Shown piece by piece: positions 377 through 21,954 of a stretch of 39,408 nucleotides of DNA. The notes below the pieces were generated by a model, which saw only the letters and a list, made by a program, of their open reading frames with translations, searched no databases and had not been told where the DNA came from. Origin of the DNA: a virus (lineage: Duplodnaviria; Heunggongvirae; Uroviricota; Caudoviricetes); the IMG/VR virus record IMGVR_UViG_2917849834_000006, positions 1 to 39,408 of that record; one strand, given 5' to 3'. Position numbers and translations under genes: made by a program. Position 1 is the stretch's first letter, and each line of letters begins with the position of its first letter.

Positions 377-385
377 AGGTGAGTA

Positions 386-2963: not shown

Positions 2964-3158
2964 TTACTCAATAACTCCAGCAAACCTGTATATCTTGCGT
3001 GATGCCCATTTATTTGGGCAGGATTTAATATCAGGATCTGGAAAATCAGGCCTGTATTTCTGGCCAGTTCTCCTGTTTACGCTATTCCAGCGAAGAACAG
3101 TCGATACTGAAACGCCACAGAATTCGGCAACTTGTTTTGTTGTCATTAAGTTGTTCAT
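2964..3158 (-). CDS. xis: Excisionase / AlpA-like HTH DNA-binding protein
   Basis: 64 aa; TTKQVAEFCGVSVSTVLRW helix-turn-helix typical of AlpA/Xis family; first gene of the leftward operon near int. Confidence 0.7.
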   Translation of the reverse strand: MNNLMTTKQVAEFCGVSVSTVLRWNSVNRRTGQKYRPDFPDPDIKSCPNKWASRKIYRFAGVIE

Positions 3159-4666: not shown

Positions 4667-5337
4667 TTCGTTCTCCACTTTATATGCGCTGCACCGCGCT
4701 GAATTTTGGGAAAAGGAAGCCCTCACCATCCGGCGATTATTGAGTCAATTACGTTTCAATAGATGCCCCAGCAGGGGCGGTTAGTTTCTCCACAAAACAG
4801 AGAAGAACACCTGCGGTGACAGCCGCCCGGATGGATTGGGTTATGAGCCCGTCGTCCGGTGATGCTCTTCTCTGTTTTGTAAAAAGAGCGGTACCAGCCG
4901 GAAGCAATGGTACAAACTGATACCGCCAAGGCAGTGGCTGTTGTGGCGGGGTTGTCACTCAGGCGTATGGTCAGCCTGACAACCCGGTGTCCTCAACGGG
5001 GAAAGAGTAACCCCGCCATACTTACCGCCGCGCCATTTCGCGGATTACCACAACGCTGAGAGCACTTAGCCAGTTCGGCGCCACACTTTGTCTCGGCTCC
5101 ATAAATGCTCTTATCGTTGCACCCTGGTCTCTTCCCAGGCGTCAAACCGAATCGCCACGCTGGTTAGGCGTCTTATCAGCATCATCATTGACTTGCACAT
5201 TCCGGCTACCTGGTTTGTTTGCCCGAGCAAGGAGTGGATTGTCCCCTTTAACGTCTCCAGACCGCTAACGACGCATGTGCCATACGCCGTGTTACAACCA
5301 AACTTTGTTTGAATCTTGCCTGTTGCATGTTTCTTTT

Positions 5338-5371
5338 GGATACATTATGTATCCCAAGGGTACATTGTCAA
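5338..5371 (-). promoter_or_regulatory. Candidate leftward early promoter (PL-like) with overlapping operators
   Basis: Minus strand TTGACA (5371-5366), 16-nt spacer, CATAAT (5349-5344); 17-bp palindrome GGATACATTATGTATCC (5338-5354) and operator-like site TGTATCCCAAGGGTACA (5348-5364). Confidence 0.45.
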
Positions 5372-5398
5372 GTATAAAAAAACCTGCCGAAGCAGGTT
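5372..5398 (-). terminator. Rho-independent terminator downstream of the cI-like gene
   Basis: Minus-strand hairpin AACCTGC-ttcg-GCAGGTT followed by a T7 run, 13 nt after the cI stop. Confidence 0.6.
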
Positions 5399-5410
5399 CA
5401 TAAATATTGA

Positions 5411-6085
5411 TTAGGTCTTTATTTTGTATCTTCTTGGTTTTCCCGAGAAAATCACTGTACCAATTATAGAGCAATTACCGTTGATCTTAATGTAAGGTTC
5501 AGGCCAGTTTGGGTTTAATGCTTTGAGGTAACGCTGTGTTCCATCTTCTATCAACCGCTTGAAGGTGGTTTCGCCTGTATCGTGCATCAATGCAATAACG
5601 TCGTCACCGTGGCAGGCAGGGACTTCAGGATCAACAAAAATCATGTCTCCTGGGCGGTACTCATCAATCATTGAATCACCAATCACCCGCAAGATATAAG
5701 TCATTTCACCACAGGGTACAGGGCAGGGATAAGTTTCTGCTGTGCTCAAATCAACCTCAGAATAACCAACTTCTTTCCATGCTCCGGCCTGTACCCATGA
5801 TATGACAGGGACTAACGTTATTTGTTTGTTAGTGATTGAAACATCAGGTTTTTTTGTGATGTTCGTTGTCTGGTGTTCTTGATCAAGCCATCCGACAGGC
5901 AGGTCGAAACATTTTTCGATGTGCCGTGCCATGCTGTCACCGATATTTTTAGTTGCACCATCTCCCATAAACCTGCTGGTCTGGGTTGGCTCGCGATCAA
6001 TCATGGTGGCAAAGGAAGAATTCCCGCCAACACCATCTCTCAGTTTTCTGGCGTTAGACCGCCGGATGTCATGGACTGTTTTCAT
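5411..6085 (-). CDS. cI-like repressor with C-terminal S24 (LexA-like) autopeptidase domain
   Basis: 224 aa; N-terminal HTH region and C-terminal VIGDSMIDEYRPGDMIFVDPE S24 signature; divergent from the cro-like gene. Confidence 0.85.
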   Translation of the reverse strand: MKTVHDIRRSNARKLRDGVGGNSSFATMIDREPTQTSRFMGDGATKNIGDSMARHIEKCFDLPVGWLDQEHQTTNITKKPDVSITNKQITLVPVISWVQAGAWKEVGYSEVDLSTAETYPCPVPCGEMTYILRVIGDSMIDEYRPGDMIFVDPEVPACHGDDVIALMHDTGETTFKRLIEDGTQRYLKALNPNWPEPYIKINGNCSIIGTVIFSGKPRRYKIKT

Positions 6086-6100
6086 AATGAAATTAAAACC

Positions 6101-6169
6101 CTTGTACCGTTAAGGTACAAGTATCTTGAAGGTTCATTTTAATCATGTAATATGTACATCGGAGGTACA
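6101..6169. promoter_or_regulatory. OR-like operator/promoter region with two 17-bp operators (TGTACC-N5-GGTACA at 6103-6119; TGTACA-N5-GGTACA at 6153-6169)
   Basis: Perfect palindrome CTTGTACCGTTAAGGTACAAG at 6101-6121; second near-identical site overlapping the cro RBS; candidate rightward promoter TTGAAG (6126-6131), 16 nt, TAATAT (6148-6153). Confidence 0.6.
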
Positions 6170-6175
6170 TATTGT

Positions 6176-6376
6176 ATGAAAGCGTATTGGGACTCTTTAA
6201 CCAAAGAACAGCAGGGCGAGTTGGCCGGAAAAGTTGGCTCAACACCAGGCTACTTACGGCTGGTTTTCAATGGTTATAAAAAAGCCAGTTTTGTGCTGGC
6301 TAAAAAAATTGAGCAATGCACGTCAGGTGCAATTACGAAATCTGACTTAAGACCGGATATCTATCCGAAAGATTAA
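6176..6376 (+). CDS. Cro-like / YdaS-like HTH regulator
   Basis: Small basic protein divergent from cI; likely start is the ATG at 6176 after GGAGG, rather than the track start at 6152. Confidence 0.65.
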   Translation: MKAYWDSLTKEQQGELAGKVGSTPGYLRLVFNGYKKASFVLAKKIEQCTSGAITKSDLRPDIYPKD

Positions 6377-6407
6377 CAGAACACCTTCAATTTTTAACCA
6401 CAGAACG

Positions 6408-6971
6408 ATGAGGCTAACCGTGGGTAAGCATCACTGGAAAGTAGAAAAACAGCCTGAGTGGTACGTGAAAGCTGTCAGAAAAACTATCGCGGCATTGCCG
6501 GGGGGTTACGCTGAAGCTGCTGACTGGCTGGATGTAACAGAGAACGCATTATTTAACCGCCTTCGTGCCGATGGCGATCAGATTTTCCCGCTGGGATGGG
6601 CAATGATTTTACAGCGCGCGGCTGGCACTCACTACATTGCGGATGCTGTCGCACAGTCTGCTGGTGGGGTGTTTGTATCGCTTCCTGAAATTGAGGAAGT
6701 AGAGAACGCCGATATAAACCAGCGCCTGCTGGAAGTCATCGAACAGATCGGGAGTTACTCAAAGCAGATTCGTTCGGCAATCGAAGATGGGGTAGTGGAG
6801 CCACACGAGCAGACAGCAATTAATGATGAGTTGTATCTGTCAATTTCGAAGCTCCAGGAGCATGCAGCACTGGTCTACAAAATCTTTTGCGCTCCAGAAA
6901 AGAGTGACGCCCGCGAGTGTGCAGCTCCGGGCGTCGTGGCGTTTTGTGTCTGTGGAGAAACTAACGCATGA
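6408..6971 (+). CDS. CII-like regulatory protein (CP76/YdaT-like), tentative
   Basis: 187-aa ORF directly after cro; family assignment is from position and general resemblance only. Confidence 0.4.
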   Translation: MRLTVGKHHWKVEKQPEWYVKAVRKTIAALPGGYAEAADWLDVTENALFNRLRADGDQIFPLGWAMILQRAAGTHYIADAVAQSAGGVFVSLPEIEEVENADINQRLLEVIEQIGSYSKQIRSAIEDGVVEPHEQTAINDELYLSISKLQEHAALVYKIFCAPEKSDARECAAPGVVAFCVCGETNA

Positions 6972-7804
6972 ACAGTTTAACGGCAAATAATCGTTTGTCG
7001 CAACAGCTGGTGGTCAGTGTCGCTGAACACCTGTTGTTACGGCATGAATGCAGATTACCAAATCACCTGGCTGTAAGTAACCACAGAGAACTTTACCTGA
7101 CTGTGGGGGGCGAGTTGTGCAGGAACTTAACCGCTGGTTTCGTGACGGAAGAGGGCTTTATGTCCATGTTATTCGTTGGGAGCCAGAAACACAGCGCGTT
7201 ATCTATCTTCGCAAAGACTACCCGCATGAGTGCTTTAGTCCTTTGTGGAAATTCAGGCGTGATTTTGTTGAGTGTGAAGGACCACCAGCACATTGATTCT
7301 GCCATTCTGGGACGTTACACTGTTCAGGCACCTTATAAAGCGGGTGCCGGGATTGGCGTCCTGGAATTGCATACGGCGACAATTGGCGCGTTAGCGTCTT
7401 TTTTGTTGCTACAACTCAGCTATACCCAAATTATGGTGGGCTGGGTGGGGGCACCGAAAGGTGCGCCGGTTTCCGTATGCGCCGGTTACGCCAACCCTGC
7501 TCAGTTCACCACCAGCGAAATTGGCGTTTCCGGTGGTGGAAGTTATCCATTGCATACGGAGGCTGCCATCATGGCTACTGTCCCAGCCCTCTCTCGTCTG
7601 AATGATGACGACTTACATAAACTCAGTTATGTAACAACTGCACTACGTGCTCTGCGCAAGGTAACTCTTTCGGATCCGCAGGCGCATCAGGTTCTGGTAG
7701 AAACCCTTCTTAACTTGCAGGCTGAACGTATTCGTCTGGCGGATAAGGCTAATTTTCATATTCACCGTCTCCTTAATATCAGCGGAGGGCATCGTCATGC
7801 TTAA
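6968..7804 (+). CDS. Hypothetical protein (early right operon)
   Basis: 278-aa ORF with overlapping stop/start coupling; an alternative-frame protein-like ORF at about 7078-7260 leaves the reading frame in this segment uncertain. Confidence 0.4.
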   Translation: MNSLTANNRLSQQLVVSVAEHLLLRHECRLPNHLAVSNHRELYLTVGGELCRNLTAGFVTEEGFMSMLFVGSQKHSALSIFAKTTRMSALVLCGNSGVILLSVKDHQHIDSAILGRYTVQAPYKAGAGIGVLELHTATIGALASFLLLQLSYTQIMVGWVGAPKGAPVSVCAGYANPAQFTTSEIGVSGGGSYPLHTEAAIMATVPALSRLNDDDLHKLSYVTTALRALRKVTLSDPQAHQVLVETLLNLQAERIRLADKANFHIHRLLNISGGHRHA

Positions 7805-8033
7805 TCCGTTGATTCTCAATATTTGCCGTTTGCTTCAGCGTAAAAAAACATCAATTCCTACAGTTGGGCAGTGGTACACCACGCCTGCAGGGCATGTTCT
7901 ACGTGTTAGCCTGGTTGACCGTGAATGTCAGAAGGTGATTTGTGAACCGCTGGGCCGTAATTACCGCGTCAGTATGCCGCTTATAGCCTTTCGCTCCGGA
8001 AAAAACATGAAGCATCTCGGAGGTGCAGCATGA
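7797..8033 (+). CDS. Hypothetical protein
   Basis: 78-aa ORF, ATGCTTAA overlap with the upstream gene. Confidence 0.4.
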   Translation: MLNPLILNICRLLQRKKTSIPTVGQWYTTPAGHVLRVSLVDRECQKVICEPLGRNYRVSMPLIAFRSGKNMKHLGGAA

Positions 8034-8848
8034 GTATGGAGCTGATGGTTAAAGCGATGAAAATTCGAGTGGGTAATCCATTGCGAAAACTGGTTCTGAT
8101 CAAGCTGGCTGATAATGCCAGCGATCAGGGTGAGTGCTGGCCCAGCTACCAGCATATTGCTGACCAGTGCGAGATTAGCAAACGTTCTGTGATGAATCAT
8201 ATTGCGGCCCTTTGTGAGTCCGGGCTGGTAAAAAAAGTCACCCGGAAAGGTGAAAAAGGTAACTCAAGTAATATCTATCTCCTTCATCTGGATGGTGCAG
8301 GAGATTCACTAGGGGGTAGTGCAAATAATTCACTATCTGGTGCAGCAAATTCACCAGGTAGTGCAGGAGTTGCACCAGGGGGTAGTGCAGGAGATTCACC
8401 CAGAACCAGTCACTCTTTTGAACCAGTCAAAGAATCAGTCAATGAACCAATAGCTTTTGGTGCATCTGCTGATGAGTCTGTGCGAGTTCGTTCAAACCGA
8501 CCGGAATACTCTCCGGAGTTTGAGCAGGCATGGCTGGCATATCCCAAACGTGCTGGTGGCAATTCAAAATCTGCAGCCTTCAAAGCCTGGAAAGCCCGTT
8601 TGAATGAGGGGGTAAACCCCGAAACCATGCTGGAAGGTGTGAAACGCTACGCGGGCTGGGTATCTGCGATGGGTAACAGTGGCACACAATTTGTGAAACA
8701 GGCTGTCACGTTCTTTGGTCCGGATCGTCATTTCGAAGAATCCTGGGAAGTTCCTGCGGTATCTGCAGCCAGACGCGAGGACCCGTACTTCAAAGCCAGT
8801 TACGACAACGTGGACTACAGCCAGATCCCGGCAGGATTCAGGGGGTGA
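8030..8848 (+). CDS. Replication initiation protein (phage replisome organiser N-terminal HTH domain, O-like)
   Basis: N-terminal KLVLIKLADNASDQGECWPSYQHIADQCEISKRSVMNHIAALCESGLV winged-helix domain; internal G/S/A-rich linker encoded by iteron-like DNA repeats. Confidence 0.65.
   Translation: MSMELMVKAMKIRVGNPLRKLVLIKLADNASDQGECWPSYQHIADQCEISKRSVMNHIAALCESGLVKKVTRKGEKGNSSNIYLLHLDGAGDSLGGSANNSLSGAANSPGSAGVAPGGSAGDSPRTSHSFEPVKESVNEPIAFGASADESVRVRSNRPEYSPEFEQAWLAYPKRAGGNSKSAAFKAWKARLNEGVNPETMLEGVKRYAGWVSAMGNSGTQFVKQAVTFFGPDRHFEESWEVPAVSAARREDPYFKASYDNVDYSQIPAGFRG
8290..8400 (+). repeat. Iteron-like direct repeats inside the replication gene (candidate origin)
   Basis: Five or more copies of (G/A)GTGCA(G/C) with repeated GGTGCAGGAGATTCAC and GGGGGTAGTGCA units. 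Confidence 0.5.
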
Positions 8849-9339
8849 TCATGAGTCTTTTGAATGAAGTTCAGAAATTCATTGAAGCCCATCCGGGGTG
8901 TACTTCCGGAGACATTGCGGATGCTTTTACAGGTTACTCACGGCAGCGCGTTCTGCAGTCAGCAAGCAAGTTACGTCAGAGTGGGCGTGTGGCTCACCGT
9001 TGTGAAGGGGATACACGCAGACATTTCCCGCGCCTGACTGAGAGAGCGCAGGAGCCGGAACCACAACCAGTTCGTGAAACCAGACCTGTGCGCAATTTCT
9101 ATGTCGGCACTAACGATCCACGGGTGATTTTGTGCCTGACCCGCCAGGCTGAAGAACTGGAGTCAAGGGGCTTATACCGTCGTGCTGCAACCGTGTGGAT
9201 GGCGGCATTCCGTGAAAGCCACTCCCAGCCAGAACGAAACAATTTTCTGGCGCGTCGTGAGCGGTGCTTACGGAAAAGCAGCAAGCGCGCTGCATCGGGT
9301 GAAGAGTGGTATCTGTCAGGGAATTACGTGGGGGCTTAA
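8845..9339 (+). CDS. PerC-like transcriptional activator family protein, tentative
   Basis: 164 aa; C-terminal LYRRAATVWMAAFRES… resembles PerC-family proteins common in enterobacterial prophages. Confidence 0.35.
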   Translation: MIMSLLNEVQKFIEAHPGCTSGDIADAFTGYSRQRVLQSASKLRQSGRVAHRCEGDTRRHFPRLTERAQEPEPQPVRETRPVRNFYVGTNDPRVILCLTRQAEELESRGLYRRAATVWMAAFRESHSQPERNNFLARRERCLRKSSKRAASGEEWYLSGNYVGA

Positions 9340-9992
9340 TGAGTAATAAATATTGCCAGGCGCTGGTGGAACTGCGGAACAAACCAGTCCATGAACTGAA
9401 GGAAGTGGGCGATCAGTGGCGCACGCCGGACAACATTTTCTGGGGAATTAACACCCTGTTTGGCCCGTTTGTTCTGGATCTGTTCACTGACGGTGATAAC
9501 GCCAAATGTGCTGCGTATTACACGGCGGAAGACAACGCGCTGGCGCATGACTGGTCAGAACGTCTTGCGGAGCTTAAAGGTGCTGCCTTTGGTAATCCCC
9601 CATACAGCCGCGCCAGTCAGCATGAGGGGCAATACATCACCGGCATGCGTTACATCATGAAACATGCCAGTGCCATGCGTGATAAGGGCGGGCGCTATGT
9701 TTTCCTGATCAAAGCTGCCACCAGCGAAGTGTGGTGGCCGGAAGATGCGGACCATATTGCTTTTATTCGCGGGCGTATTGGTTTTGAACTGCCTGCCTGG
9801 TTTATCCCGAAGGACGAGAAGCAGGTGCCGACAGGAGCGTTCTTCGCTGGTGCTATTGCTGTTTTCGACAAGACCTGGAAGGGACCGGCAATCAGCTACA
9901 TCGGGCGCGATGAACTTGAGGCATGTGGTGAGGCGTTTCTGGCGCAGGTTCGCCAGCAGGCGGAAAAACTGGTCAGGGAGATGGCGGCATGA
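9339..9992 (+). CDS. Phage DNA N6-adenine methyltransferase (Dam family)
   Basis: GNPPY motif (AFGNPPYS); likely start is the ATG at 9339 (TAATG overlap with the upstream stop). Confidence 0.8.
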   Translation: MSNKYCQALVELRNKPVHELKEVGDQWRTPDNIFWGINTLFGPFVLDLFTDGDNAKCAAYYTAEDNALAHDWSERLAELKGAAFGNPPYSRASQHEGQYITGMRYIMKHASAMRDKGGRYVFLIKAATSEVWWPEDADHIAFIRGRIGFELPAWFIPKDEKQVPTGAFFAGAIAVFDKTWKGPAISYIGRDELEACGEAFLAQVRQQAEKLVREMAA

Positions 9993-10315
9993 CGACGTTA
10001 ACTCAATGCCAGCAGCAGGTGCTGGATATGCTGATTTCTTATCAGAAAGAACGTGGCTTCCCGCCAACCAATCAGGAGGTGGCAACCATGCTGGGATACC
10101 GTTCGGTGAATGCAGCGGTGGAGCATCTTCGCTCACTGGAGAAAAAAGGCGTCATCACGATAAAGCGTGGTGTGGCCCGGGGGATAACGCTTCATACCGC
10201 GGTGAAGGACGACGACAGCGAGGCGGTCGAGATTATCCGATCACTGCTTGCCGGTGAGGAAAACGCCAGGCTGCGTGCAGCCTACTGGTTACATGAGAGG
10301 GGCCTGAAAGTATGA
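9989..10315 (+). CDS. LexA-type N-terminal DNA-binding domain protein
   Basis: 108 aa; winged-HTH resembling the LexA DNA-binding domain; no peptidase domain. Confidence 0.5.
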   Translation: MTTLTQCQQQVLDMLISYQKERGFPPTNQEVATMLGYRSVNAAVEHLRSLEKKGVITIKRGVARGITLHTAVKDDDSEAVEIIRSLLAGEENARLRAAYWLHERGLKV

Positions 10316-10701
10316 AGCTGATTCTGCCTTTTCCGCCCAGCGTGAACACGTACTGGCGACACCCCAACAAAGGGGCGTTTGCAGGTAAGAGCCTGATAAG
10401 CGCGGCGGGACGCAAATTCCAGAGCGCGGCGTGTGCAGCAATAGTTGAGCAGTTACGTCGTCTGCCAAAACCAACGTCGGCACCTGCTTCAGTGGAGATC
10501 GTGTTGTTTCCTCCGGATAACCGGATCCGCGATCTGGACAACTATAACAAGGCGCTGTTTGACGCCCTGACCCACGCGGGTGTGTGGGAAGACGACAGTC
10601 AGGTGAAAAGAATGCTGGTGGAGTGGGGACCGGTTATCCCGGAAGGGAAGGTCGAGATCACTATCAGTAAGTACGAGAAAACGGCGGGTGCAGCCGCCTG
10701 A
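10312..10701 (+). CDS. rusA: RusA-type Holliday junction resolvase
   Basis: 129 aa; LPFPPSVNTYWRH…DLDNYNKALFDALTHAGVWEDDSQV matches the RusA family. Confidence 0.9.
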   Translation: MKLILPFPPSVNTYWRHPNKGAFAGKSLISAAGRKFQSAACAAIVEQLRRLPKPTSAPASVEIVLFPPDNRIRDLDNYNKALFDALTHAGVWEDDSQVKRMLVEWGPVIPEGKVEITISKYEKTAGAAA

Positions 10702-10720
10702 TCAAGAGGAGAAACGAAGT

Positions 10721-11518
10721 ATGAATAATCTGATGGTCATTGATGGTATTGAAGTTCGTCGTGATGCTTATGGGCGTTACAGCCTGAACGATCTGCACAG
10801 GGCTGCCGGTTCTCTGGATAAGCATAAGCCTGCATACTGGCTCCGCAATGAGCAAACTGAACGTTTAATAAGCGAGTTGCAGATTTGCAACTCGGTCAAT
10901 ATAGAGCCAGTTAACGTTATTCGTGGCGGAAATAACCAGGGGACGTATGTCTGCAAAGAACTGGTGTATGCCTATGCAATGTGGATCAGCCCGTCATTCC
11001 ATCTGAAGGTGATCCGTACTTTCGACATGGTAACCAGCGCACCTGAAAAATTATCCGGACAGGCTGCTGACAAGATGCAGGCTGGCGTGATTCTGCTGGA
11101 CTTTATGCGTCGGGAGTTAAACCTGTCTAACTCATCTGTGCTTGGGGCCTGTCAGAAACTCCAGGAGGCTGTTGGCTTACCGAATCTGGCACCGCGCTAT
11201 GCCATTGATGCTCCTGCTGACGCGCCTGATGGCTCAAGTCGCCCTACGCTGTCGCTGAGTGCACTGCTGAAACAGTATGGTATCCGCCTTACGGCTAATC
11301 AGGCATATCACCAGATGGTGAAGCTGGGGATCGTCGAACAGCGCGAACGATACAGCCGTACCGCGATTAACAACATCAAAAAATTCTGGTCGCTGACAGC
11401 GAAAGGCTGCATGTTCGGCAAGAACATCACCAGTCCCGCAAATCCGCGCGAGACGCAGCCGCATTTCTTCGAATCCCGATTCCCTGAGCTGTTAAAGCTG
11501 CTCGATACCGTTCATTGA
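10721..11518 (+). CDS. KilA-N domain protein (antirepressor-like)
   Basis: KilA-N signature GTYVCKELVYAYAMWISPSFHLKVI; likely start is the ATG at 10721 after AGGAG, rather than the track start at 10688. Confidence 0.75.
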   Translation: MNNLMVIDGIEVRRDAYGRYSLNDLHRAAGSLDKHKPAYWLRNEQTERLISELQICNSVNIEPVNVIRGGNNQGTYVCKELVYAYAMWISPSFHLKVIRTFDMVTSAPEKLSGQAADKMQAGVILLDFMRRELNLSNSSVLGACQKLQEAVGLPNLAPRYAIDAPADAPDGSSRPTLSLSALLKQYGIRLTANQAYHQMVKLGIVEQRERYSRTAINNIKKFWSLTAKGCMFGKNITSPANPRETQPHFFESRFPELLKLLDTVH

Positions 11519-11519
11519 G

Positions 11520-12515
11520 GTGACCGTGAGAGCACTACTGACCCCTGAAATTGCCCCGCGCATGGGGATCGTATTGTTCAGGCCAGGTTCAGAGCTGATG
11601 CCCTTGTTTATGCAGGGGCGTGTCCTGCTGGAGCCTGAGCCGGAACGTTATTCATCTTTCGCCAGTGGTGCCGTTCCGGCGGCATCACAACCGCTGGCGG
11701 ATGATCCTGCCGTTCAGGCCGTGTTCCGCAATGAGGCAGTGATCCGTCGTGCTGGTGGCGTGGAATGTCTTGAAAGCTGGTTACTTCGTGAAAAAGGCTG
11801 CCAGTGGCCTCATTCCGACTGGCACAGCGAGAACATGACCACAATGCGACACGCGCCGGGCGCAATCCGTCTGTGCTGGCACTGCGATAACCAGCTGCGC
11901 GATCAGTTCACGGAACGGCTGGAATCAATGGCAACGGATAACTGTGCCCGCTGGGTGTTGTCTGTAGTCCGTCGGGATCTCGGTTTTGATGATAACCATG
12001 CCGTGACAATGCCGGAACTGTGCTGGTGGCTGATTCGTAATGACCTGGCGGATGCCTTACCTGAAAGCGCAGCCCGTAAGGCGCTGAGATTACCGAAACC
12101 TGTTGTGCCGTCTGTCACCCGGGAAAGTGACCTTGTGCCTTCGGTTCCTGCCACCAGCATCATCCAGGATAAAGCGAAAAAGGTGCTGGCGCTGAAAGTG
12201 GATCCGGAGTCGCCAGAGTCTTTTATGTTACGCCCAAAACGCCGCCGCTGGGTTAATGAAAAGTACACGCGCTGGGTTAAGACACAGCCGTGTGCATGTT
12301 GTGGAAAGCCTGCTGATGATCCCCACCACCTGATAGGCCATGGTCAGGGTGGAATGGGTACAAAAGCGCATGACCTCTTTGTGTTGCCTTTGTGCAGAAA
12401 GCATCACGACGAGCTGCATGCGGATACCGTGGCATTTGAAGAGAAGTATGGCTCTCAGCTGGAGCTGATATTTCGTTTTATCGATCGTGCGCTGGCAATT
12501 GGCGTATTGGCGTAA
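11520..12515 (+). CDS. DUF968 / Ref-like HNH-motif protein
   Basis: C-terminal cysteine/histidine cluster CACCGKPADDPHHLIGHG…CRKHHDELH; GTG start. Confidence 0.55.
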   Translation: MTVRALLTPEIAPRMGIVLFRPGSELMPLFMQGRVLLEPEPERYSSFASGAVPAASQPLADDPAVQAVFRNEAVIRRAGGVECLESWLLREKGCQWPHSDWHSENMTTMRHAPGAIRLCWHCDNQLRDQFTERLESMATDNCARWVLSVVRRDLGFDDNHAVTMPELCWWLIRNDLADALPESAARKALRLPKPVVPSVTRESDLVPSVPATSIIQDKAKKVLALKVDPESPESFMLRPKRRRWVNEKYTRWVKTQPCACCGKPADDPHHLIGHGQGGMGTKAHDLFVLPLCRKHHDELHADTVAFEEKYGSQLELIFRFIDRALAIGVLA

Positions 12516-12528
12516 GTGGAGAACGAGC

Positions 12529-13281
12529 ATGAACCTTGAAGCCTTACCAAAATATTACTCCCCAAAATCTCCAAAATTGAGCGATGACGCACCGGCGACA
12601 GGCTCAGGTGGTTTAACGATTACGGATGTGATGGCTGCGCAGGGGATGGTGCAGTCGAAAGCACCGCTTGGGTTTGCCTTATTCCTGGCAAAAGTTGGTG
12701 TTCAGGATCCTCAATTTGCGATTGAAGGTCTGCTCAATTACGCGATGGCACTGGATAACCCGACATTGAACAAATTGAGTGAAGAAACCCGGTTACAGAT
12801 CATCCCTTACCTTGTGAATTTTGCCTTTGCTGATTATTCCAGGTCTGCGGCAAGTAAGGCTCGCTGTGAGCATTGTGCTGGTACTGGATTTCATAATGTA
12901 TTGCGCGAAGTGGTGAAACACTCCAGAAGCGGGGAATCTGTTATCAAGGAAGAGTGGGTGAAGGAACTATGTCAGCATTGCCATGGTAAGGGAGAAGTCA
13001 GCACGGCTTGCAGAGGGTGTAAGGGTAAAGGCATTGTCCTGGATGAAAAAAGAACCCGGCTTCATGGCGCGCCTGTTTATAAGATTTGTGGGCGTTGCAA
13101 TGGAAATCGGTTTAGTCGTTTACCGACCACACTGGCACGACGTCATGTCCAGAAGCTGGTACCAGACCTGACTGATTATCAGTGGTACAAAGGATATGCA
13201 GACGTCATTGATAAACTGGTAACAAAGTGCTGGCAGGAAGAAGCATTCGCAGAGTTACAGTTGCAAAAAGTGACACGATAG
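12529..13281 (+). CDS. Late gene antiterminator Q-like protein
   Basis: Zinc-binding CxxC…CxxC cluster (CEHCAGTG…CQHCHGKG…CRGCKGKG…CGRC); position just upstream of the lysis cassette; likely start at 12529. Confidence 0.65.
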   Translation: MNLEALPKYYSPKSPKLSDDAPATGSGGLTITDVMAAQGMVQSKAPLGFALFLAKVGVQDPQFAIEGLLNYAMALDNPTLNKLSEETRLQIIPYLVNFAFADYSRSAASKARCEHCAGTGFHNVLREVVKHSRSGESVIKEEWVKELCQHCHGKGEVSTACRGCKGKGIVLDEKRTRLHGAPVYKICGRCNGNRFSRLPTTLARRHVQKLVPDLTDYQWYKGYADVIDKLVTKCWQEEAFAELQLQKVTR

Positions 13282-13472
13282 CTACATTTTTAATGATTTT
13301 CTCCGCATAATGCTTGCAATTTTCAAAAAATATGGTTAGCCTTAACGTAAAGATGGGCATTGAATGTCTAACTTTTATAAACCCGCTCAGGCGGGTTTAT
13401 GTTGCATGTTTTTTGAACAGGTGATATTGTGATCTCCATCACATTTGTGATGCTGGTTGAAAGGAGATCACC

Positions 13473-13676
13473 ATGCAAAATAGTAAACACACGACCAAGA
13501 AGGTCGTGGCAATTGCAAATAATATTGAGATTGGCTCAGTATTAGTGTCTGCTACTCAGAAAAGTATTCTGCTGAATACTGGTTGGGAATTACCAATTAT
13601 AGAAGTAGACAAGCTGTCTCATTCCTATGAGGTTTACATTAAACCTCGTCATAAAACCCTCCATCCTTCGCGATGA
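13473..13676 (+). CDS. Small hypothetical protein between Q and the lysis genes (moron position)
   Basis: 67-aa ORF with GGAG RBS, lower GC, followed by an intrinsic terminator. Confidence 0.45.
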   Translation: MQNSKHTTKKVVAIANNIEIGSVLVSATQKSILLNTGWELPIIEVDKLSHSYEVYIKPRHKTLHPSR

Positions 13677-13693
13677 TGAAAGTAAGATTTTTG

Positions 13694-13719
13694 AGGCCGC
13701 CTACGGGCGGCCTTTTTTA
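13694..13719 (+). terminator. Rho-independent terminator upstream of the holin gene
   Basis: AGGCCGCC-tacg-GGCGGCCT followed by a T6 run. Confidence 0.65.
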
Positions 13720-13805
13720 TGCGCACTTCTGCAAATCAGCGTTATAACCAGCTTCTTTCCCTTTTACTCGTTGCACTTCCGGTAACCGGAGGTGGGAATT
13801 ATGAA

Positions 13806-14141
13806 ATGCACAACGATCCTCATTCCTGGCCTGACTTACTTGAATTGTTACAGAGCTGGTGGCGTGGAGACACACCACTGGGCGCAGTGATTATGTCGAT
13901 TGTTATGGCTGGATTGCGCATTGCCTATTTTGGCGGTGGTGGTGGCTGGAAGCGAAAAACGCTCGAGATTTTGCTCTGTGGTGCTCTTACGCTGACTTTT
14001 GCATCCGCGCTTGAGTATGTCGGATGGCCTAAATCGCTTTCTGTTGCCATTGGTGGCGGCGTTGGGCTGATCGGTGTCGATGCTATTCGTGGGGCTGCAA
14101 TGCGAGTAATCGGTAACAAGTTTGGTAGCTCGAAGGAGTAA
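13806..14141 (+). CDS. Holin (lambda S-like, three TM segments)
   Basis: Three hydrophobic segments and charged C-terminus; immediately upstream of the endolysin gene; start uncertain (ATG at 13806 preferred over track start 13719). Confidence 0.7.
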   Translation: MHNDPHSWPDLLELLQSWWRGDTPLGAVIMSIVMAGLRIAYFGGGGGWKRKTLEILLCGALTLTFASALEYVGWPKSLSVAIGGGVGLIGVDAIRGAAMRVIGNKFGSSKE

Positions 14142-14144
14142 TTT

Positions 14145-14621
14145 ATGCAGGTGTTAAATTCCCAGCGTAAAGCTTTCCTTGATATGGTGGCATGGTCAGA
14201 AGGAACGGATAACGGGCGACAACCGACACGTAACCACGGTTATGACGTTATTGTCGGTGGAGAACTCTTCACTGATTACTCCGATCACCCTCGCAAACTT
14301 GTCACGCTAAACCCGAAACTCAAATCAACAGCTGCAGGCCGTTATCAACTTCTTTCACGCTGGTGGGATGCTTACCGCAAGCAGCTTGGGCTGAAAGACT
14401 TCTCTCCCAGAAGCCAGGATTCAGTGGCATTACAGCAGATTAAAGAGCGTGGCGCTTTACCGATGATTGATCGCGGTGATATCCGTCAGGCTATCGATCG
14501 TTGCAGCAATATCTGGGCGTCATTACCCGGTGCAGGTTACAGTCAGTATGAACATAAAATCGGTGACCTGATTGCCCGATTTAAAGAGGCTGGTGGGGTG
14601 GTAAATGAAGTTGAGTTATAA
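14145..14621 (+). CDS. R: Endolysin, lambda R-type lytic transglycosylase
   Basis: 158 aa; near-identical over most of its length to lambda R as recalled (…NQRKAFLDM…AWSEGTDNGRQ…YDVIVGGELFTDYSDHPRKLV…). Confidence 0.95.
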   Translation: MQVLNSQRKAFLDMVAWSEGTDNGRQPTRNHGYDVIVGGELFTDYSDHPRKLVTLNPKLKSTAAGRYQLLSRWWDAYRKQLGLKDFSPRSQDSVALQQIKERGALPMIDRGDIRQAIDRCSNIWASLPGAGYSQYEHKIGDLIARFKEAGGVVNEVEL

Positions 14622-14994
14622 GCTGGTTATCTCTGCTTTCTTCGTTACTGTCGTCAGTTCTATCATCTGGTCAGCCAACTACTACAGCAAATATCAGCAC
14701 GAAAAGAAACGTGCTGATGATGCTGCACGAAATGCTGAATCAGCAACTGCTATTACCAATAACGTCCTGCAATCAGTGCAAATCATAAATACAGTTCTGG
14801 AGGCTAACCAGCATGCAAAACAGCAGATCGCACTGGAGTCACAGAGAACCCAGGAAGATATCAAAGCGGCTGTTGCGGATGATGATTGTGCTTCACGTCC
14901 TGTGCCTGCTGCCGCTGCTGACCGGTTGCGGAAATTCGCGAACGGTTTACGTGAGCGCTCCGGTGGCACCACTGCCAGCCAGTCTGACTTCTGA
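14605..14994 (+). CDS. Rz-like inner-membrane spanin
   Basis: N-terminal TM segment, coiled-coil-like periplasmic region, position after the endolysin. Confidence 0.7.
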   Translation: MKLSYKLVISAFFVTVVSSIIWSANYYSKYQHEKKRADDAARNAESATAITNNVLQSVQIINTVLEANQHAKQQIALESQRTQEDIKAAVADDDCASRPVPAAAADRLRKFANGLRERSGGTTASQSDF

Positions 14995-15154
14995 TACTCC
15001 TGTACCGTTTATACCCAATCCGCTGACGTATGGTGCCAGTCTGGAGTTGAATGTGAGTCTGTTGTCAGCGTTGGGACAATGCAATATTGACAAAGCGGGG
15101 ATTAGAAAGATAGAGGCGAGCCGGTCAGGTAGAAATGAATCAGGCTCAAAGTGA
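14879..15154 (+). CDS. Rz1-like outer-membrane lipoprotein spanin, starts inside Rz in the +1 frame and extends beyond it
   Basis: Signal peptide with lipobox LLTGC and proline-rich mature region. Confidence 0.65.
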   Translation: MMIVLHVLCLLPLLTGCGNSRTVYVSAPVAPLPASLTSDTPVPFIPNPLTYGASLELNVSLLSALGQCNIDKAGIRKIEASRSGRNESGSK

Positions 15155-15236
15155 AGCGGAAAAGGTCTGTGGCACAAACTGATGCTGCCATAATTACAGC
15201 CTGATGACTTGTGGAATGAAACATGTTGAACCTCCT

Positions 15237-15797
15237 TAATTGATGTGATTCGAGTGAGGAAGGCATTCTGTCCTTCTATAGTGTCCAGTAAATCAAACAG
15301 GAAGCTTGTCTCACGTGTGAGACAAGCCTCTCCATTAGCGAGTTGTATTGATTACAACTCTTCAAAGAGTTCATTACTGGGTAGATGAAAATAGTTTCAC
15401 GACGAATGGAGGAGACTATGTCGGTGGCTTCTTCATTGGAGTACATATGCTCCCTCGAACCTCAAAAGCATGCCGAGTTCGCGGCTGCCGCCATACCACG
15501 ACTGACCCGTGTTGAAGCTCCGTAATTGATGTTATTCGAGTGAGGAAGGCATTCTGCCCCCCTATACTGTCCAGTAAATCAAACAGGAAACTTGCCTCAC
15601 GCGTGAGACAAGCCTCTCCCATCAGTGAGTTGTATTGATCTCGACTCTTCAAAGAATTCATTACTGGGTAGATGAAAATAGTTTCACGACGAATGGAGGA
15701 GGCTATGTCGGTAGCTTCTTCATTGGAGTACATATGCCACCACGAACCCCAAAAGCCTGCCGTGTTCGCGGCTGCCGCCATACCACAACTGACCCGT
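15237..15797 (+). repeat. Two diverged tandem copies of a ~286-bp unit (15237-15515 and 15523-15797), each with a long palindrome and an HNH-gene 5' end
   Basis: Direct comparison: about 90% identity between copies; copy 1 holds a 22-codon remnant MLPRTSKACRVRGCRHTTTDPC* (15447-15515), copy 2 holds the intact HNH start. Confidence 0.8.
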
Positions 15798-16084
15798 CAG
15801 GCTATTGCGAAAGCCACAAAAGTGAAGGCTGGAAGCAATACAAGCCAGGACAATCCCGTCATCAGCGCGGTTATGGTTCGAAGTGGGACGGTATCCGCGT
15901 GCGCGTCCTGAAGCGTGACAAAGGTTTATGTCAGTTATGTCTGCGTGCTGGTGTGGTGCGTGAGGCGAAAACCGTTGACCACATAATTCCTAAAGCGCAT
16001 GGCGGCACAGATTCAGACAGCAATCTGCAGAGCCTGTGCTGGCCGTGTCATAAGGCGAAGACGGCTCGTGAACGGCTGAAGTAA
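15734..16084 (+). CDS. HNH endonuclease (packaging-associated)
   Basis: HNH motif …DHIIPKAHGGTDSDSNLQSLCWPCHKAK…; directly upstream of the terminase small subunit; ATG at 15734 with GGAG RBS. Confidence 0.85.
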   Translation: MPPRTPKACRVRGCRHTTTDPSGYCESHKSEGWKQYKPGQSRHQRGYGSKWDGIRVRVLKRDKGLCQLCLRAGVVREAKTVDHIIPKAHGGTDSDSNLQSLCWPCHKAKTARERLK

Positions 16085-16208
16085 GAACCAGTTCCCACTG
16101 CCAGAGGGGAGGGCGGGTCAAATCCCTGTGACCTGACGCCTTCAGGACTGCCCGCCCCATCGTTTTTTTATACCCGCGAAAAATGAAATTTAACCAGGAG
16201 TGCCGCAT

Positions 16209-16703
16209 ATGGCTGGAACGGCGGGGCGTTCCGGGCGTCGCCCCAAGCCAACGGCGCGCAAGGCGCTGGCCGGAAACCCCGGCAAGCGAGCCCTGAACAA
16301 AGATGAACCCGTTTTTACGCCCATCAAAGGTGTTGAGCCACCGGAGTGGTTCGCTGAAGAAGAGCTCCCTCTCGCCACGATCATGTGGCAACTGACAACC
16401 AAAGAACTCTGCGGTCAGGGCCTGCTGTGCGTGACTGACCTCGCAGTGCTTGAGCGGTGGTGCGTGGCCTATGAGTTCTGGCGACGTGCTGTGAAAAATA
16501 TTGCCAGACAGGGCAACACCATCACCGGTGCAATGGGCGGCATGGTCAAAAATCCGGAGCTGACCGCCAAAAAAGAACAGGAGTCCGAGATGAGCAGTAC
16601 GGGGGCAATGCTCGGACTCGACCCCAGCAGCCGCCAGCGTCTGATTGGCCTGGCGGGGCAGAAGAAAGCCACTAACCCGTTTCTGAAAATTATCGAATCA
16701 TGA
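16209..16703 (+). CDS. Terminase small subunit (P27/HK97 family)
   Basis: Position between HNH and large terminase, size, charged N-terminus; ATG at 16209 with GGAG RBS. Confidence 0.8.
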
Positions 16704-18433
16704 GCCGGAAATCTTACCCCAACGTAAATGCTGCAAATCAGTATGCCCGGGATGTCGTGCGCGGAAAGATTGTTGCCTGCCAGTTTGTGATTCAGGCCTG
16801 CCAGCGCCATCTTGATGACCTGATGGCGGAAAAAAGTAAGTCGTTTCGTTACCGCTTCGACAAGGACCTGGCTGAACGGGCCGCCAAATTTATTCAGCTG
16901 TTGCCGCACACCAAGGGTGAGTGGGCATTTAAACGGATGCCCATCACGCTGGAGCCGTGGCAGCTATTTGTGATCTGCTGTGCGTTTGGCTGGGTCAATA
17001 AAGGCACCCGGTTGCGCCGCTTCCGGGAGGTGTATACCGAAATTCCCCGTAAGAACGGCAAATCGGCAATCTCTGCCGGTGTTGCCCTGTATTGTTTTGC
17101 CTGTGATAACGAGTTCGGCGCGGAAGTGTATTCCGGTGCCACGACGGAGAAACAGGCATGGGAAGTCTTTCGTCCGGCACGACTGATGTGTAAACGCACA
17201 CCCATGCTGACGGAAGCGTTCGGGATTGAGGTTAACGCCTCAAACATGAACCGTCCGGAGGATGGTGCGCGGTTTGAACCGCTGATCGGTAACCCCGGTG
17301 ATGGTTCATCACCCCACTGTGCCGTGGTGGATGAATATCACGAGCACGCCACAGATGCGCTTTACACCACAATGCTTACCGGGATGGGGGCGCGACGCCA
17401 GCCACTGATGTGGGCCATCACCACCGCCGGGTACAACATTGAGGGGCCGTGCTATGACAAGCGGCGGGAAGTTCTCGAGATGCTCAACGGTTCGGTACCC
17501 AACGATGAACTGTTCGGGATCATCTATACCGTTGACGAAGGCGATGACTGGACCGACCCGGAGGTGCTGGAAAAAGCCAACCCGAATATTGGCGTGTCGG
17601 TTTATCGCGAATTTTTGTTAAGTCAGCAGCAGCGTGCGAAAAATAACGCCCGTCTGGCAAACGTCTTTAAAACAAAACACCTCAATATCTGGGTGTCGGC
17701 GCGTTCGGCGTATTTCAACCTGGTGAGCTGGCAGAGCTGCGAGGATAAATCACTGACCCTTGAGCAGTTCGAGGGGCAGCCGTGCATTCTGGCCTTTGAC
17801 CTGGCGCGTAAGCTGGATATGAACAGCATGGCGCGACTTTATACTCGCGAGATTGACGGTAAAACGCATTACTACAGTGTGGCCCCGCGTTTCTGGGTAC
17901 CGTATGACACGGTGTACAGCGTCGAGAAAAATGAAGATCGACGGACAGCCGAACGCTTTCAGAAATGGGTGGAAATGGGCGTTCTGACCGTTACCGATGG
18001 TGCGGAGGTGGATTATCGCTACATCCTCGAGGAGGCCAAAGCGGCGAACAAAATCAGCCCGGTCAGTGAGTCACCCATCGACCCCTTCGGGGCGACCGGG
18101 TTGTCACATGACCTTGCTGATGAAGACCTGAACCCCATCACTATCATTCAGAACTACACCAACATGTCCGACCCGATGAAAGAGCTGGAAGCGGCAATTG
18201 AATCGGGGCGCTTTCATCATGATGGCAATCCCATCATGACCTGGTGTATCGGCAACGTGGTCGGCAAAACCATTCCGGGTAACGATGATGTGGTGAAGCC
18301 CGTCAAAGAGCAGGCGGAAAACAAAATCGATGGTGCAGTTGCGCTGATTATGGCGGTTGGCAGAGCCATGCTGTACGAGAAAGAAGACACGCTGTCTGAC
18401 CACATTGAGTCCTATGGGATCCGCTCGCTTTAA
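16700..18433 (+). CDS. Terminase large subunit
   Basis: 577 aa; ATPase and nuclease regions typical of Terminase_1; coupled to the small subunit (ATGA overlap). Confidence 0.9.
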
Positions 18434-18444
18434 CTGAGGTAATT

Positions 18445-18627
18445 ATGATCATGCTGATTTTCGCGCCTCTGGTGGGCGTGCTGGGGGCGCTTTTGCTGGC
18501 GTATGGTGCCTGGCTGATTTATCCCCCGGCGGGGTTTGTTGTTGCCGGGGCGTTGTGCCTGTTCTGGTCGTGGCTGGTGGCGCGATATCTCGACCGTACA
18601 CAGTCGTCTGTCGGCGGAGGTAAATAG
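18445..18627 (+). CDS. Small hydrophobic protein between terminase and portal
   Basis: 60 aa, two predicted TM helices. Confidence 0.4.
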
Positions 18628-19868
18628 TGTTCTTTTCGGGATTATTTCAACGAAAAAGTGACGCGCCGGTGACCACGCCAGCAGAGCTGGCGGATGCTAT
18701 CGGGCTGTCATATGACACCTATACCGGAAAGCAGATCAGCAGCCAGCGGGCCATGCGACTGACGGCGGTTTTTTCCTGCGTCAGGGTGCTGGCAGAGTCG
18801 GTCGGGATGTTGCCCTGCAATCTGTATCACCTGAACGGCAGCCTGAAACAGAGAGCCACCGGCGAACGTCTGCATAAGCTGATCTCCACGCATCCCAATG
18901 GCTATATGACGCCGCAGGAGTTCTGGGAGCTGGTGGTCACCTGTCTGTGCCTGCGGGGAAACTTTTACGCCTACAAAGTGAAAGCATTTGGTGAAGTGGC
19001 TGAACTGCTGCCCGTCGATCCCGGCTGTGTGGTACCGAAGCTTAACAGTAGCTGGGAGCCGGTCTATCAGGTCACATTCCCGGACGGCTCCACGGATGTA
19101 CTGAGCCAGGAAGATATCTGGCATGTGCGCACGCTGACGCTGGACGGACTGGTGGGGCTGAATCCCATCGCCTATGCCCGCGAGGCAATATCGCTGGCAG
19201 CTGCGACCGAAGAGCACGGGGCCAGACTGTTCAGCAATGGCGCGGTGACGTCCGGTGTGTTGCGTACAGAACAGACGCTGTCGGATCAGGCTTATGAGCG
19301 CCTGAAGAAAGATTTTGAGGAGCGTCACACCGGGCTTGGCAATGCTCACCGCCCGATGATCCTTGAGATGGGGCTGGACTGGAAGTCGATGGCGCTGAAC
19401 GCCGAGGACAGCCAGTTCCTGGAAACCCGCAAGTTTCAGCTTGAAGAAATCTGTCGTCTGTTCCGTGTGCCATTGCACATGGTGCAGAACACCGATCGCG
19501 CCACCTTCAACAATATCGAAGAGCTGGGGCTGGGATTTATCAACTATTCACTGGTGCCGTATCTGACCCGCATTGAGCAGCGGATCAACACCGGACTGGT
19601 ACGAAAAAGTAAGCAGGGCGTTTATTACGCCAAATTTAACGCCGGGGCGTTACTGCGCGGGGATATGAAGTCCCGTTTTGAAGCCTACGCCACCGGGATC
19701 AACTGGGGAATTTACTCTCCCAATGACTGCCGCGACCTGGAAGATATGAATCCGCGTCCCGGTGGTGATGTCTATCTCACACCGATGAACATGACCACGA
19801 AACCCTCCGATGGCAGTAAAGCCGGTAAGCAGAAGGATAACGCCAATGCAGACGAAACAACGTCTTGA
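18627..19868 (+). CDS. Portal protein (HK97 family)
   Basis: 413 aa; conserved position after the large terminase; GTG start with GGCGGAGG RBS. Confidence 0.9.
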   Translation: MFFSGLFQRKSDAPVTTPAELADAIGLSYDTYTGKQISSQRAMRLTAVFSCVRVLAESVGMLPCNLYHLNGSLKQRATGERLHKLISTHPNGYMTPQEFWELVVTCLCLRGNFYAYKVKAFGEVAELLPVDPGCVVPKLNSSWEPVYQVTFPDGSTDVLSQEDIWHVRTLTLDGLVGLNPIAYAREAISLAAATEEHGARLFSNGAVTSGVLRTEQTLSDQAYERLKKDFEERHTGLGNAHRPMILEMGLDWKSMALNAEDSQFLETRKFQLEEICRLFRVPLHMVQNTDRATFNNIEELGLGFINYSLVPYLTRIEQRINTGLVRKSKQGVYYAKFNAGALLRGDMKSRFEAYATGINWGIYSPNDCRDLEDMNPRPGGDVYLTPMNMTTKPSDGSKAGKQKDNANADETTS

Positions 19869-20496
19869 TGTACCGCTGAGTCTGAAATCTGTCAGTGACT
19901 CCGGTGAGTTTGAAGGGTATGGCTCCGTCTTTGGTGTAAAGGACAGCCACGATGATGTGGTGATGTCCGGGGCATTTGCTGCTTCCCTGCGGGCGTGGAG
20001 TGACAGAAAAGCGTTACCTGCGCTGCTCTGGCAGCACCGCATGGATGAGCCCATCGGCGTTTACACCGAAATGAAGGAAGACGATGTCGGGCTTTACGTC
20101 AGGGGGCGGTTGCTCATTGATGATGATCCCCTGGCAAAACGCGCACATGCACACATGAAGGCCGGTTCGTTAACCGGCCTTTCTATTGGGTACGTCCTGA
20201 AGGACTGGGAATACGACCGGACGAAAGAAGCCTTTCTGCTGAAAGAAATCGACCTCTGGGAAGTCAGTCTGGTGACGTTCCCGTCTAACGACGAGGCGCG
20301 GATCAGCGACGTCAAGAACGCGCTGGCCCGCGGGGAAATCCCCGAACAGAAAAAAATCGAAAGAGTCCTGCGTGATGTCGGACTCTCCCGTACCCAGGCC
20401 AAAGCATTCATGGCCGGGGGCTATGGCGCACTGTCCCTGCGCGACGCTGAGGATGTGGGCTCTGCACTGAATGCACTTAAAAATCTGAACTTCTAA
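19846..20496 (+). CDS. Prohead protease (HK97 family, S78)
   Basis: Position between portal and capsid; likely start is the ATG at 19846. Confidence 0.85.
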   Translation: MQTKQRLDVPLSLKSVSDSGEFEGYGSVFGVKDSHDDVVMSGAFAASLRAWSDRKALPALLWQHRMDEPIGVYTEMKEDDVGLYVRGRLLIDDDPLAKRAHAHMKAGSLTGLSIGYVLKDWEYDRTKEAFLLKEIDLWEVSLVTFPSNDEARISDVKNALARGEIPEQKKIERVLRDVGLSRTQAKAFMAGGYGALSLRDAEDVGSALNALKNLNF

Positions 20497-20510
20497 TCAG
20501 GAGAAATACG

Positions 20511-21716
20511 ATGGCGGTTGATATTAAAGATGTGGAACAGGTCGCGCAGGAGCTGCAGCAGAAGTTTGACGACTTCAAGGCAAAGAACGACAAGCGCGTG
20601 GATGCGATTGAGCAGGAAAAAGGCAAACTTGCCGGGCAGGTGGAAACCCTGAACGGGAAACTCAGCGAGCTGGAAAATCTCAAAAGCGACCTTGAAAAAG
20701 AGCTGCTTGAGCTGAAACGTCCGGCAGGTGGTGCGCAAAATAAACTGGCCACAGAGCACAAAGAGGCGTTTGTGGGCTTTCTGCGTAAAGGCCGTGAAGA
20801 CGGTCTGCGCGATCTGGAGCGCAAGGCATTGCAGGTGGGCACCGATGAAGACGGTGGCTATGCCGTGCCGGAAGCACTGGATCGCAACATTCTTACCCTG
20901 CTGAAAGATGAAGTGGTGATGCGCCAGGAAGCCACGGTGATCACTGTTGGCGGTTCCGACTACAAAAAACTGGTGAATCTGGGCGGCACGGCTTCCGGAT
21001 GGGTGGGCGAGACTGACGCGCGCCCCCAGACTGCCACCTCAAAACTGGGACTGATTGAACCTTTCATGGGGGAAATCTACGGTAACCCGCAGGCCACTCA
21101 GAAAATGCTGGATGATGCCTTCTTCAACGTGGAGGCCTGGATCAACAGCGAGCTGGCGACCGAATTTGCCGAACAGGAAGAAATTGCCTTTACCACCGGT
21201 GATGGCACCAAGAAGCCAAAAGGGTTCCTGGCGTATGAATCCACCGATGAAACCGATAAGGTTCGTGCGTTCGGTAAACTTCAGCATATTGTATCCGGTG
21301 AAGCGACGACGGTGACCGCAGATGCCATTATCAAACTGATTTACACGCTGCGTAAGGCACACCGCACTGGCGCGAAGTTCATGATGAACAACAACAGCCT
21401 GTTTGCCATCCGTCTGCTGAAAGACACCGAGGGTAACTATCTGTGGCGTCCGGGGCTGGAGCTGGGGCAACCGTCCTCTCTGGCGGGTTACGGTATCGCT
21501 GAAAACGAACAGATGCCGGATATCGCCGCTGATGCGAAAGCTATTGCATTTGGTAACTTCAAACGGGGTTACACCATCGTTGACCGTATCGGCACCCGCA
21601 TTCTGCGCGACCCGTACACCAATAAACCGTTTGTCGGTTTTTATACCACCAAGCGCACCGGCGGGATGCTGGTCGATTCGCAGGCCATCAAACTGCTGAA
21701 GATTGCAGCGGCGTAA
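20511..21716 (+). CDS. Major capsid protein (HK97 fold)
   Basis: 401 aa with N-terminal coiled-coil delta domain; position after the protease. Confidence 0.9.
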   Translation: MAVDIKDVEQVAQELQQKFDDFKAKNDKRVDAIEQEKGKLAGQVETLNGKLSELENLKSDLEKELLELKRPAGGAQNKLATEHKEAFVGFLRKGREDGLRDLERKALQVGTDEDGGYAVPEALDRNILTLLKDEVVMRQEATVITVGGSDYKKLVNLGGTASGWVGETDARPQTATSKLGLIEPFMGEIYGNPQATQKMLDDAFFNVEAWINSELATEFAEQEEIAFTTGDGTKKPKGFLAYESTDETDKVRAFGKLQHIVSGEATTVTADAIIKLIYTLRKAHRTGAKFMMNNNSLFAIRLLKDTEGNYLWRPGLELGQPSSLAGYGIAENEQMPDIAADAKAIAFGNFKRGYTIVDRIGTRILRDPYTNKPFVGFYTTKRTGGMLVDSQAIKLLKIAAA

Positions 21717-21765
21717 TCACTCAGGGGCGCTGAACTGCGCCCCCTGTTCTGACGGGTGAAGAATC

Positions 21766-21954
21766 ATGATCCTGAAACAAGATCTGAAATGGTCACCGGA
21801 CGGTATGCGCGTTGAGATCATTCGTGCTGGTGAGTATGAAGATAAAGAATTACCCGAACGGGTACGTGAAATTGCCACTGCAGCAGGGATTGTTTCTGAT
21901 AAGAGAACACCTGTTGCACGGGTATCTGATAAGGCTAAAAAACAGCATTCATAG
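21766..21954 (+). CDS. Small hypothetical protein
   Basis: 62-aa ORF between capsid and connector genes. Confidence 0.3.
   Translation: MILKQDLKWSPDGMRVEIIRAGEYEDKELPERVREIATAAGIVSDKRTPVARVSDKAKKQHS

Follow-up and report, generated by a model that had tools for sequence, protein, structure and literature searches.

The window, our term for the whole 39,408-nucleotide stretch of viral DNA analysed here, is a mosaic prophage. Positions 1-13380 are ~96% identical to Stx2c-converting phages, and the lysis/packaging/head region (4157-21842) is ~95% identical to the E. coli phages vB_EcoM-689R6 and 720R4 and to the Sf phages. At the locus of interest an HNH endonuclease gene, preceded by lysis genes of the Rz/Rz1 type, is separated from the genes for the small terminase (TerS), large terminase (TerL) and portal protein by a spacer of 125 nt (16085-16209, HNH ORF stop to small terminase ORF start). 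The gene features are as follows.

15734-16084, + strand: HNH endonuclease gene, cos-cleavage accessory nuclease (116 aa, start ATG at 15734; Pfam PF01844, E 8e-17)
16196-16200, + strand: AGGAG, the Shine-Dalgarno for small terminase, with 8 nt between it and the ATG at 16209 (sequence reading)
16209-16703, + strand: small terminase, P27 family (164 aa; Pfam PF05119 Terminase_4, E 2e-21)
16700-18433, + strand: large terminase (577 aa; Pfam PF03354 and PF20441)
18627-19868, + strand: portal protein gene (Pfam PF04860, E 4e-108)

The HNH, TerS, TerL and portal ORFs are all full length. The HNH protein is 45% identical over 42 aa to gp74 of HK97 (E 9e-11), and its counterparts are labelled HNH or homing endonuclease in the annotations of SfI, SKA5 and 689R6. 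TerL is 26% identical over 524 aa to HK97 gp2 (E 3e-30). The coordinates of the window TerS are those of SfV orf1, and a homologue was absent among PDB sequences. A strict HK97 packaging system fits only in part: TerL and HNH are homologous to gp2 and gp74 as such a system requires, but at the sequence level TerS shows no homology to gp1, the arginine-clamp nonamer. BLASTP, hhalign and Pfam all found no similarity between TerS and HK97 gp1, with PF05119 assigned to the former and no Pfam family to the latter. A 60-aa hydrophobic ORF (18445-18627) lies between TerL and portal and overlaps a terminator-like hairpin at 18463-18490.

The first-pass annotation had pointed to a GC-rich inverted repeat and T-run between HNH and TerS as a candidate terminator or cos region. 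The window sequence reads as it described: GGGCGGG at 16111-16117 and CCCGCCC at 16151-16157 flank 33 nt, and a TTTTTTT run (16163-16169) starts 5 nt past the right arm, with arms and T7 run all inside the 125-nt spacer. By itself the repeat is weak evidence, being only mildly unusual. A perfect 7-bp inverted repeat with a loop of 3-40 nt arises in 18% of dinucleotide shuffles of the spacer and an all-G/C one in 0.7%, while the whole window holds 4 all-G/C inverted repeats against ~1 expected. The 55 nt from 16106 to 16160 fold at −26.3 kcal/mol (z = −2.2), and the fold of the whole spacer is unremarkable (z = −0.5).

Comparison with other phages indicates that the spacer is very probably the cos region of an HK97-like prophage of the SfV/SfI/phiP27 type, a reading to which we assign a probability of about 0.92. 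We take the site as real because it is homologous to experimentally mapped phage termini, and not because of the repeat statistics. Run-off sequencing of SfI virion DNA showed 10 nt to be missing relative to the prophage, 5'-TGCCCGCCCC-3', and these were defined as cos (PMC3636060). TGCCCGCCCC occurs once in the window, at 16149-16158, with every base as in the SfI cos 10-mer, and the SfI primers cos-F and cos-R (PMC3636060) match exactly at 15734-15755 and at the complement of 16231-16250. The last base of the SfI record matches 16158 and its first base 16159. SfI, SfII, SfIV and SfV have an identical cos site (PMC3851460). The run-off mapping of ends that the first-pass annotation had suggested as a check has therefore already been done on the near-identical SfI (PMC3636060); the cos site is already established in near-identical phages, and there is no new signal here.

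A megablast search of 15600-16800 against phage records returned SfIV at 99.7% and SfV, SfI and SfII at ~97% identity, in addition to E. coli and Salmonella phages. Identity to the Sf phages within the spacer is 92-99%, and four of the matched linear phage records begin inside it. The record of the Stx2e phage phiP27 labels the homologous sequence, CGCCCGCCCC, "cos-site". The record of Edwardsiella phage EPP-1, a free-phage isolate, breaks at 16158/16159 (...TGCCCGCCTC before the break, CCCCAATTTTTATGACCGCGAAA after it). The ends of HK97 can be set in register with these (right end ...GGGCAGGGGGGGGGATCAAATC-(21 nt)-GACCGCCGCCAAA, left end GTTTGAATTTAACGCTAACCCGATTTTTTTAG), and the HK97 genome therefore stops exactly 10 nt past a conserved GAC, as does that of SfI. 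The flanking blocks are collinear with SfI, SfV, phiP27, EPP-1 and more than 100 relatives, and the site lies between HNH and the TerS/TerL/portal genes, the gene order of an SfV/SfI/phiP27-type cos. The SfI 10-mer, the phiP27 annotation, the HK97 termini and the homology of TerL and HNH to gp2 and gp74 thus all agree, and the proposal of a cos region is borne out. One detail is contrary: the first base of the SfV and SfIV records falls at 16142 rather than 16159, 7 nt upstream of the SfI-mapped end. The cos mechanism of SfV was termed "postulated" by the SfI authors (PMC3636060). The mapped termini are those of homologues, and the element could itself be a defective prophage copy. A literature search with the TGCCCGCCCC string returned unrelated papers only.

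The anatomy of the region was compared in two samples of relatives. The first, picked by the right-hand block, consisted of viral contigs (at least 120 loci, with 80 unique cores among the matches listed). The second was picked by TerS protein similarity alone and consisted of 43 genome loci with TerS identity down to 50%, giving 38 upstream regions; its genera include Edwardsiella, Serratia, Xenorhabdus, Photorhabdus, Morganella, Gilliamella and Cupriavidus, among others. Both samples have the same layout: a left block, a spacer of fixed length, GAC with a C-rich 10-mer, and a right block. Across many genera the three blocks recur at a constant spacing relative to the cut, while how far they lie from the TerS start codon differs. 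In the window the elements are as follows.

16106-16128, + strand: left conserved block GGGGAGGGCGGG-TCAAATCCCTG, holding the left arm of the repeat (16111-16117), 21-52 bp upstream of the cut
16129-16145, + strand: variable spacer, free in sequence among relatives and kept in length
16146-16148, + strand: near-invariant GAC directly 5' of the 10-mer, also in HK97
16149-16158, + strand: cos cleavage core, the 10-nt cohesive end TGCCCGCCCC, matched to the SfI run-off mapping and including the right arm (16151-16157)
16159-16189, + strand: right conserved block ATCG-TTTTTTT-ATACCCGCGAAAAATGAAAT, including the T7 run; probable TerS recognition site

As the 10-mer spans 16151-16157, the right arm of the repeat is the cohesive end itself. 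Staggered nicks at 16148/16149 (bottom strand) and 16158/16159 (top strand) would give 3' overhangs of 10 nt.

The left block follows the pattern of a G-run and then TCAAATC(C/T)CTG. It is kept in the 80 unique viral-contig cos regions (among the matches listed), in the 38 TerS-selected regions and in HK97 (GGGGGGGGATCAAATC). Of the GAC bases, A and C are the same in all 52 non-redundant sequences. The variable spacer of the window contains a 5-bp mini-hairpin (helix 2), CCTGA at 16132-16136 with TCAGG at 16142-16146, for which 55% of cells are paired among relatives. A conserved mini-hairpin was rejected: small GC hairpins occur in many relatives (mean z = −0.7), though not at aligned positions.

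On the terminase side, a near-invariant block, TTTTTATACCCGCGAAAAATGAAAT (16163-16189), begins with the T7 run, and relatives follow the pattern (N)TC-(A/T-rich)-TTTTTAYACCCGCGAAAAATGAAAT. The sequence TTTTTAYACCCGCGAAA occurs once in the window and in at least 120 viral contigs; CCGCGAAA is retained in 38/38 TerS-selected upstream regions, always equally far from the cut and in nearly all cases as part of the complete block. Because the right block keeps a constant distance from the cut and a variable one from the TerS start, it is part of the cut site and not of the TerS translation signals. In Photorhabdus and Xenorhabdus prophages the gap from the right block to the TerS start codon is longer by 40-60 nt.

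Among characterised phages, the closest to the window are SfI, SfII, SfIV and SfV, which have the identical 10-mer and likewise place cos between HNH and TerS. Relative to SfI and SfV, the window lacks one G in its left block (GGGGAGGGCGGG) and carries two substitutions in the variable spacer; variants of left block and spacer similar to those of the window occur in relatives. It also differs from the Sf phages by a 287-bp tandem duplication upstream of HNH and by its early region, which resembles Stx2c phages instead. In phiP27 (AJ298298, misc_feature 21806-21815, CGCCCGCCCC) the 10-mer agrees at 9/10 bases and the three-block layout and P27-family TerS are shared, whereas spacer identity is ~76%, the run is T5 instead of T7, and TerS is 49% identical.

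The likeness to HK97 is uneven. Its left half has the same layout as that of the window, a G-run with ATCAAATC, a 21-nt spacer, and GAC followed by a 10-mer at which the genome stops. The right half shares an ACCCG core and an A/T tract (a T-tract) at a similar offset, but reads CTAACCCGATTTTTT where the window reads CCCGCGAAAAATGAA. The HNH gene lies ~320 bp from cos in HK97 and 64 bp from it in the window.

Lambda cos (cosQ-cosN-cosB) follows the same logic, with an upstream element required when packaging ends and a downstream region, by the small-terminase gene, that the small terminase binds. Lambda has 12-nt 5' overhangs, the unrelated Nu1 small terminase with R sites, an IHF site and no HNH partner. 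A lambda-type cos is ruled out here by the 10-nt end, the Terminase_4 TerS and the HNH gene. We also rejected an IHF site at TCAAATC, where GGTCAAATCCCTG of the window matches the consensus WATCAANNNNTTR only partly, with 3 mismatches; a literature search on an IHF site at TCAAATC found no evidence bearing on the question.

In HK97, cleavage leaves 10-nt 3' overhangs and TerS binds +15 to +29 at CTAACCCGATTTTTT, with an ACCCG core and an A/T tract (PMC11331095); this site requires both its C:G pair at position 21 and its A-tract (PMC11331095). The HK97 HNH protein gp74 stimulates cos cleavage by TerL (PMC9410871). By analogy, during lytic growth TerS, TerL and the adjacent HNH protein would cut concatemeric DNA at TGCCCGCCCC (16149-16158); we attribute the staggered nicks at the 10-mer to TerL and HNH. 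The nicks would be staggered by 10 nt and would most likely leave 3' overhangs. We infer the 3' polarity in this element because the SfI run-off reads left a gap, not an overlap, and because HK97 has 3' overhangs. On this model the packaged molecule would begin at 16159, next to the terminase genes, and its HNH-proximal end would carry the 10-mer.

The T-run/ACCCGCGAAAAAT block is a probable TerS recognition site. We assign the right block to TerS because it has an ACCCG core and A/T tract at ~+14 to +30, as does the HK97 TerS site; with 16159 as +1, the interval +15 to +29 corresponds to 16173-16187 and reads CCCGCGAAAAATGAA. The analogy is limited in that HK97 TerS has no sequence similarity to the window TerS. 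HK97 shares the left block despite this unrelated TerS, and the left block is therefore more likely read by TerL/HNH. Its role would be in cleavage or, speculatively and by position, in ending a packaging round like lambda cosQ.

These relationships raise the possibility that the cos is modular. The homologous TerL-HNH pair would recognise the left half (G-run with TCAAATC, fixed spacer, GAC with 10-mer), and a change of TerS would be accompanied by replacement of the right half alone. We offer this tentatively and lean against it. The same reservation attaches to a joint proposal in which the upstream G-run and TC serve as an additional docking site in inverted orientation, similar to cosQ, which fixes the nick position or ends the packaging round. 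The literature searched contained no description of a modular cos arrangement.

An unlikely alternative gives the inverted repeat a role of its own as a DNA element, either binding two protomers of the nicking complex or extruding a cruciform that marks the cut. The inverted copies of G-run and TC would then be GGGCGGGTC on the top strand (16111-16119) and GGGCGGGCAGTC on the bottom strand (complement of 16146-16157). All relatives, HK97 included (GGGGGGGGATC, GACCGCCGCC), do have a left block rich in G and a 10-mer rich in C, and the segment from G-block to C-block folds better than shuffles (mean z = −1.2). Cognate left and right blocks also pair slightly better than permuted ones (−19.26 vs −18.70 kcal/mol, permutation p ~0.002), but this gain is small (0.6 kcal/mol) and confounded by relatedness. 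Position-specific covariation is absent, and the centre of symmetry (~16134) is offset from the cut by some 15-25 nt, in contrast to the two-fold symmetric cosN of lambda.

The arms fare no better as a conserved structural unit, for which both RNAalifold and covariation counts were negative in 52 relatives. RNAalifold on the 52 non-redundant regions gave no consensus hairpin (−0.3 kcal/mol). The seven arm pairs together with the inner 5-bp hairpin were paired in 67.2% of cells, compared with 66.6% in shuffles (52 sequences), and the covariation score of 0.212 (0.196 in shuffles) was equalled by 58/500 shuffles. In 35/52 sequences the C:G pair at the centre of the repeat is disrupted. The complementarity of the arms comes mostly from a G-run facing a C-run, which weighs against a dedicated element. 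Rfam gave no family match, with nothing in 15900-16400 better than E = 3.4 or near a gathering score.

We regard it as very improbable that the repeat is an intrinsic (rho-independent) terminator that ends lysis/HNH transcription before the packaging genes, perhaps besides a cos role. Its location is intergenic, 16106-16160 is foldable at the energy given above, and T7 lies 4-5 nt downstream. However, a simple consensus scan makes no call there, and in place of a compact stem there is a multibranched "loop" of 33 nt with the U-run starting 4-5 nt past the stem. Nor is a stem maintained, the 52 relatives having neither a consensus hairpin nor covariation; in relatives the T-run goes down to T5 after A's. 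The terminator half of the first-pass proposal is accordingly dropped. The T-run does not serve as its tail either: it is part of the conserved right block, beyond the cut towards the terminase genes, and its conservation within TTTTTAYACCCGCGAAA reaches well beyond any terminator tail. In lambdoid phages late transcription must pass from the lysis genes through cos into the head genes, which also counts against termination at this point.

It is scarcely credible that the repeat is a chance feature of a decayed prophage that no longer packages DNA: the shuffle frequency of 18% for some perfect 7-bp inverted repeat would allow it, but the 10-mer and both flanks are intact and (nearly) identical to those of the plaque-forming SfI, SfV, SfIV, 720R4 and SKA5, and the HNH, TerS, TerL and portal ORFs retain their full length.

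The cos site is known and common. The HNH-cos-TerS region is present in 1518/5426 complete E. coli genomes (~28%). Its recognition sets the genome ends of this prophage type at 16148/16149 and 16158/16159, an aid in linearising and comparing such prophages, and has little importance beyond annotation. The fixed block spacing, with a left half common to HK97 and a right half that tracks the TerS family, is a modest by-product, and this comparative picture of the blocks could guide mutagenesis of HNH-dependent cos cleavage.

Elsewhere in the window we observed a strong terminator-like hairpin on the + strand at 13693-13714, just upstream of the lysis genes, with a 9-bp stem (7 GC pairs), a 4-nt loop and TTTTAT. 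It is possibly a late-operon terminator that is read through by antitermination.

The tandem duplication has a unit of ~287 bp (15214-15510 and 15500-15797, 88-92% identical) and repeats the region upstream of HNH together with its first 64 nt, so that the first copy holds a truncated 5' fragment of HNH. Some E. coli prophages have the duplication (e.g. strain XH993, a full-length match); it is absent from O157:H7 prophages, where the match falls into two pieces and is 286 bp shorter. Each copy contains a palindrome with a 13-bp stem, GAAGCTTGTCTCACGTGTGAGACAAGCCTC or a variant of it (15301-15330 and 15587-15616), that the scan labels terminator-like on the minus strand.

Two small RNAs scored above the Rfam gathering score in the window: the isrK Hfq-binding RNA (7328-7404, 61 bits) and, directly after it, the C4 antisense RNA (7429-7516, 81 bits). 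isrK and C4 are a known small-RNA pair of prophage immunity/antirepressor regions.
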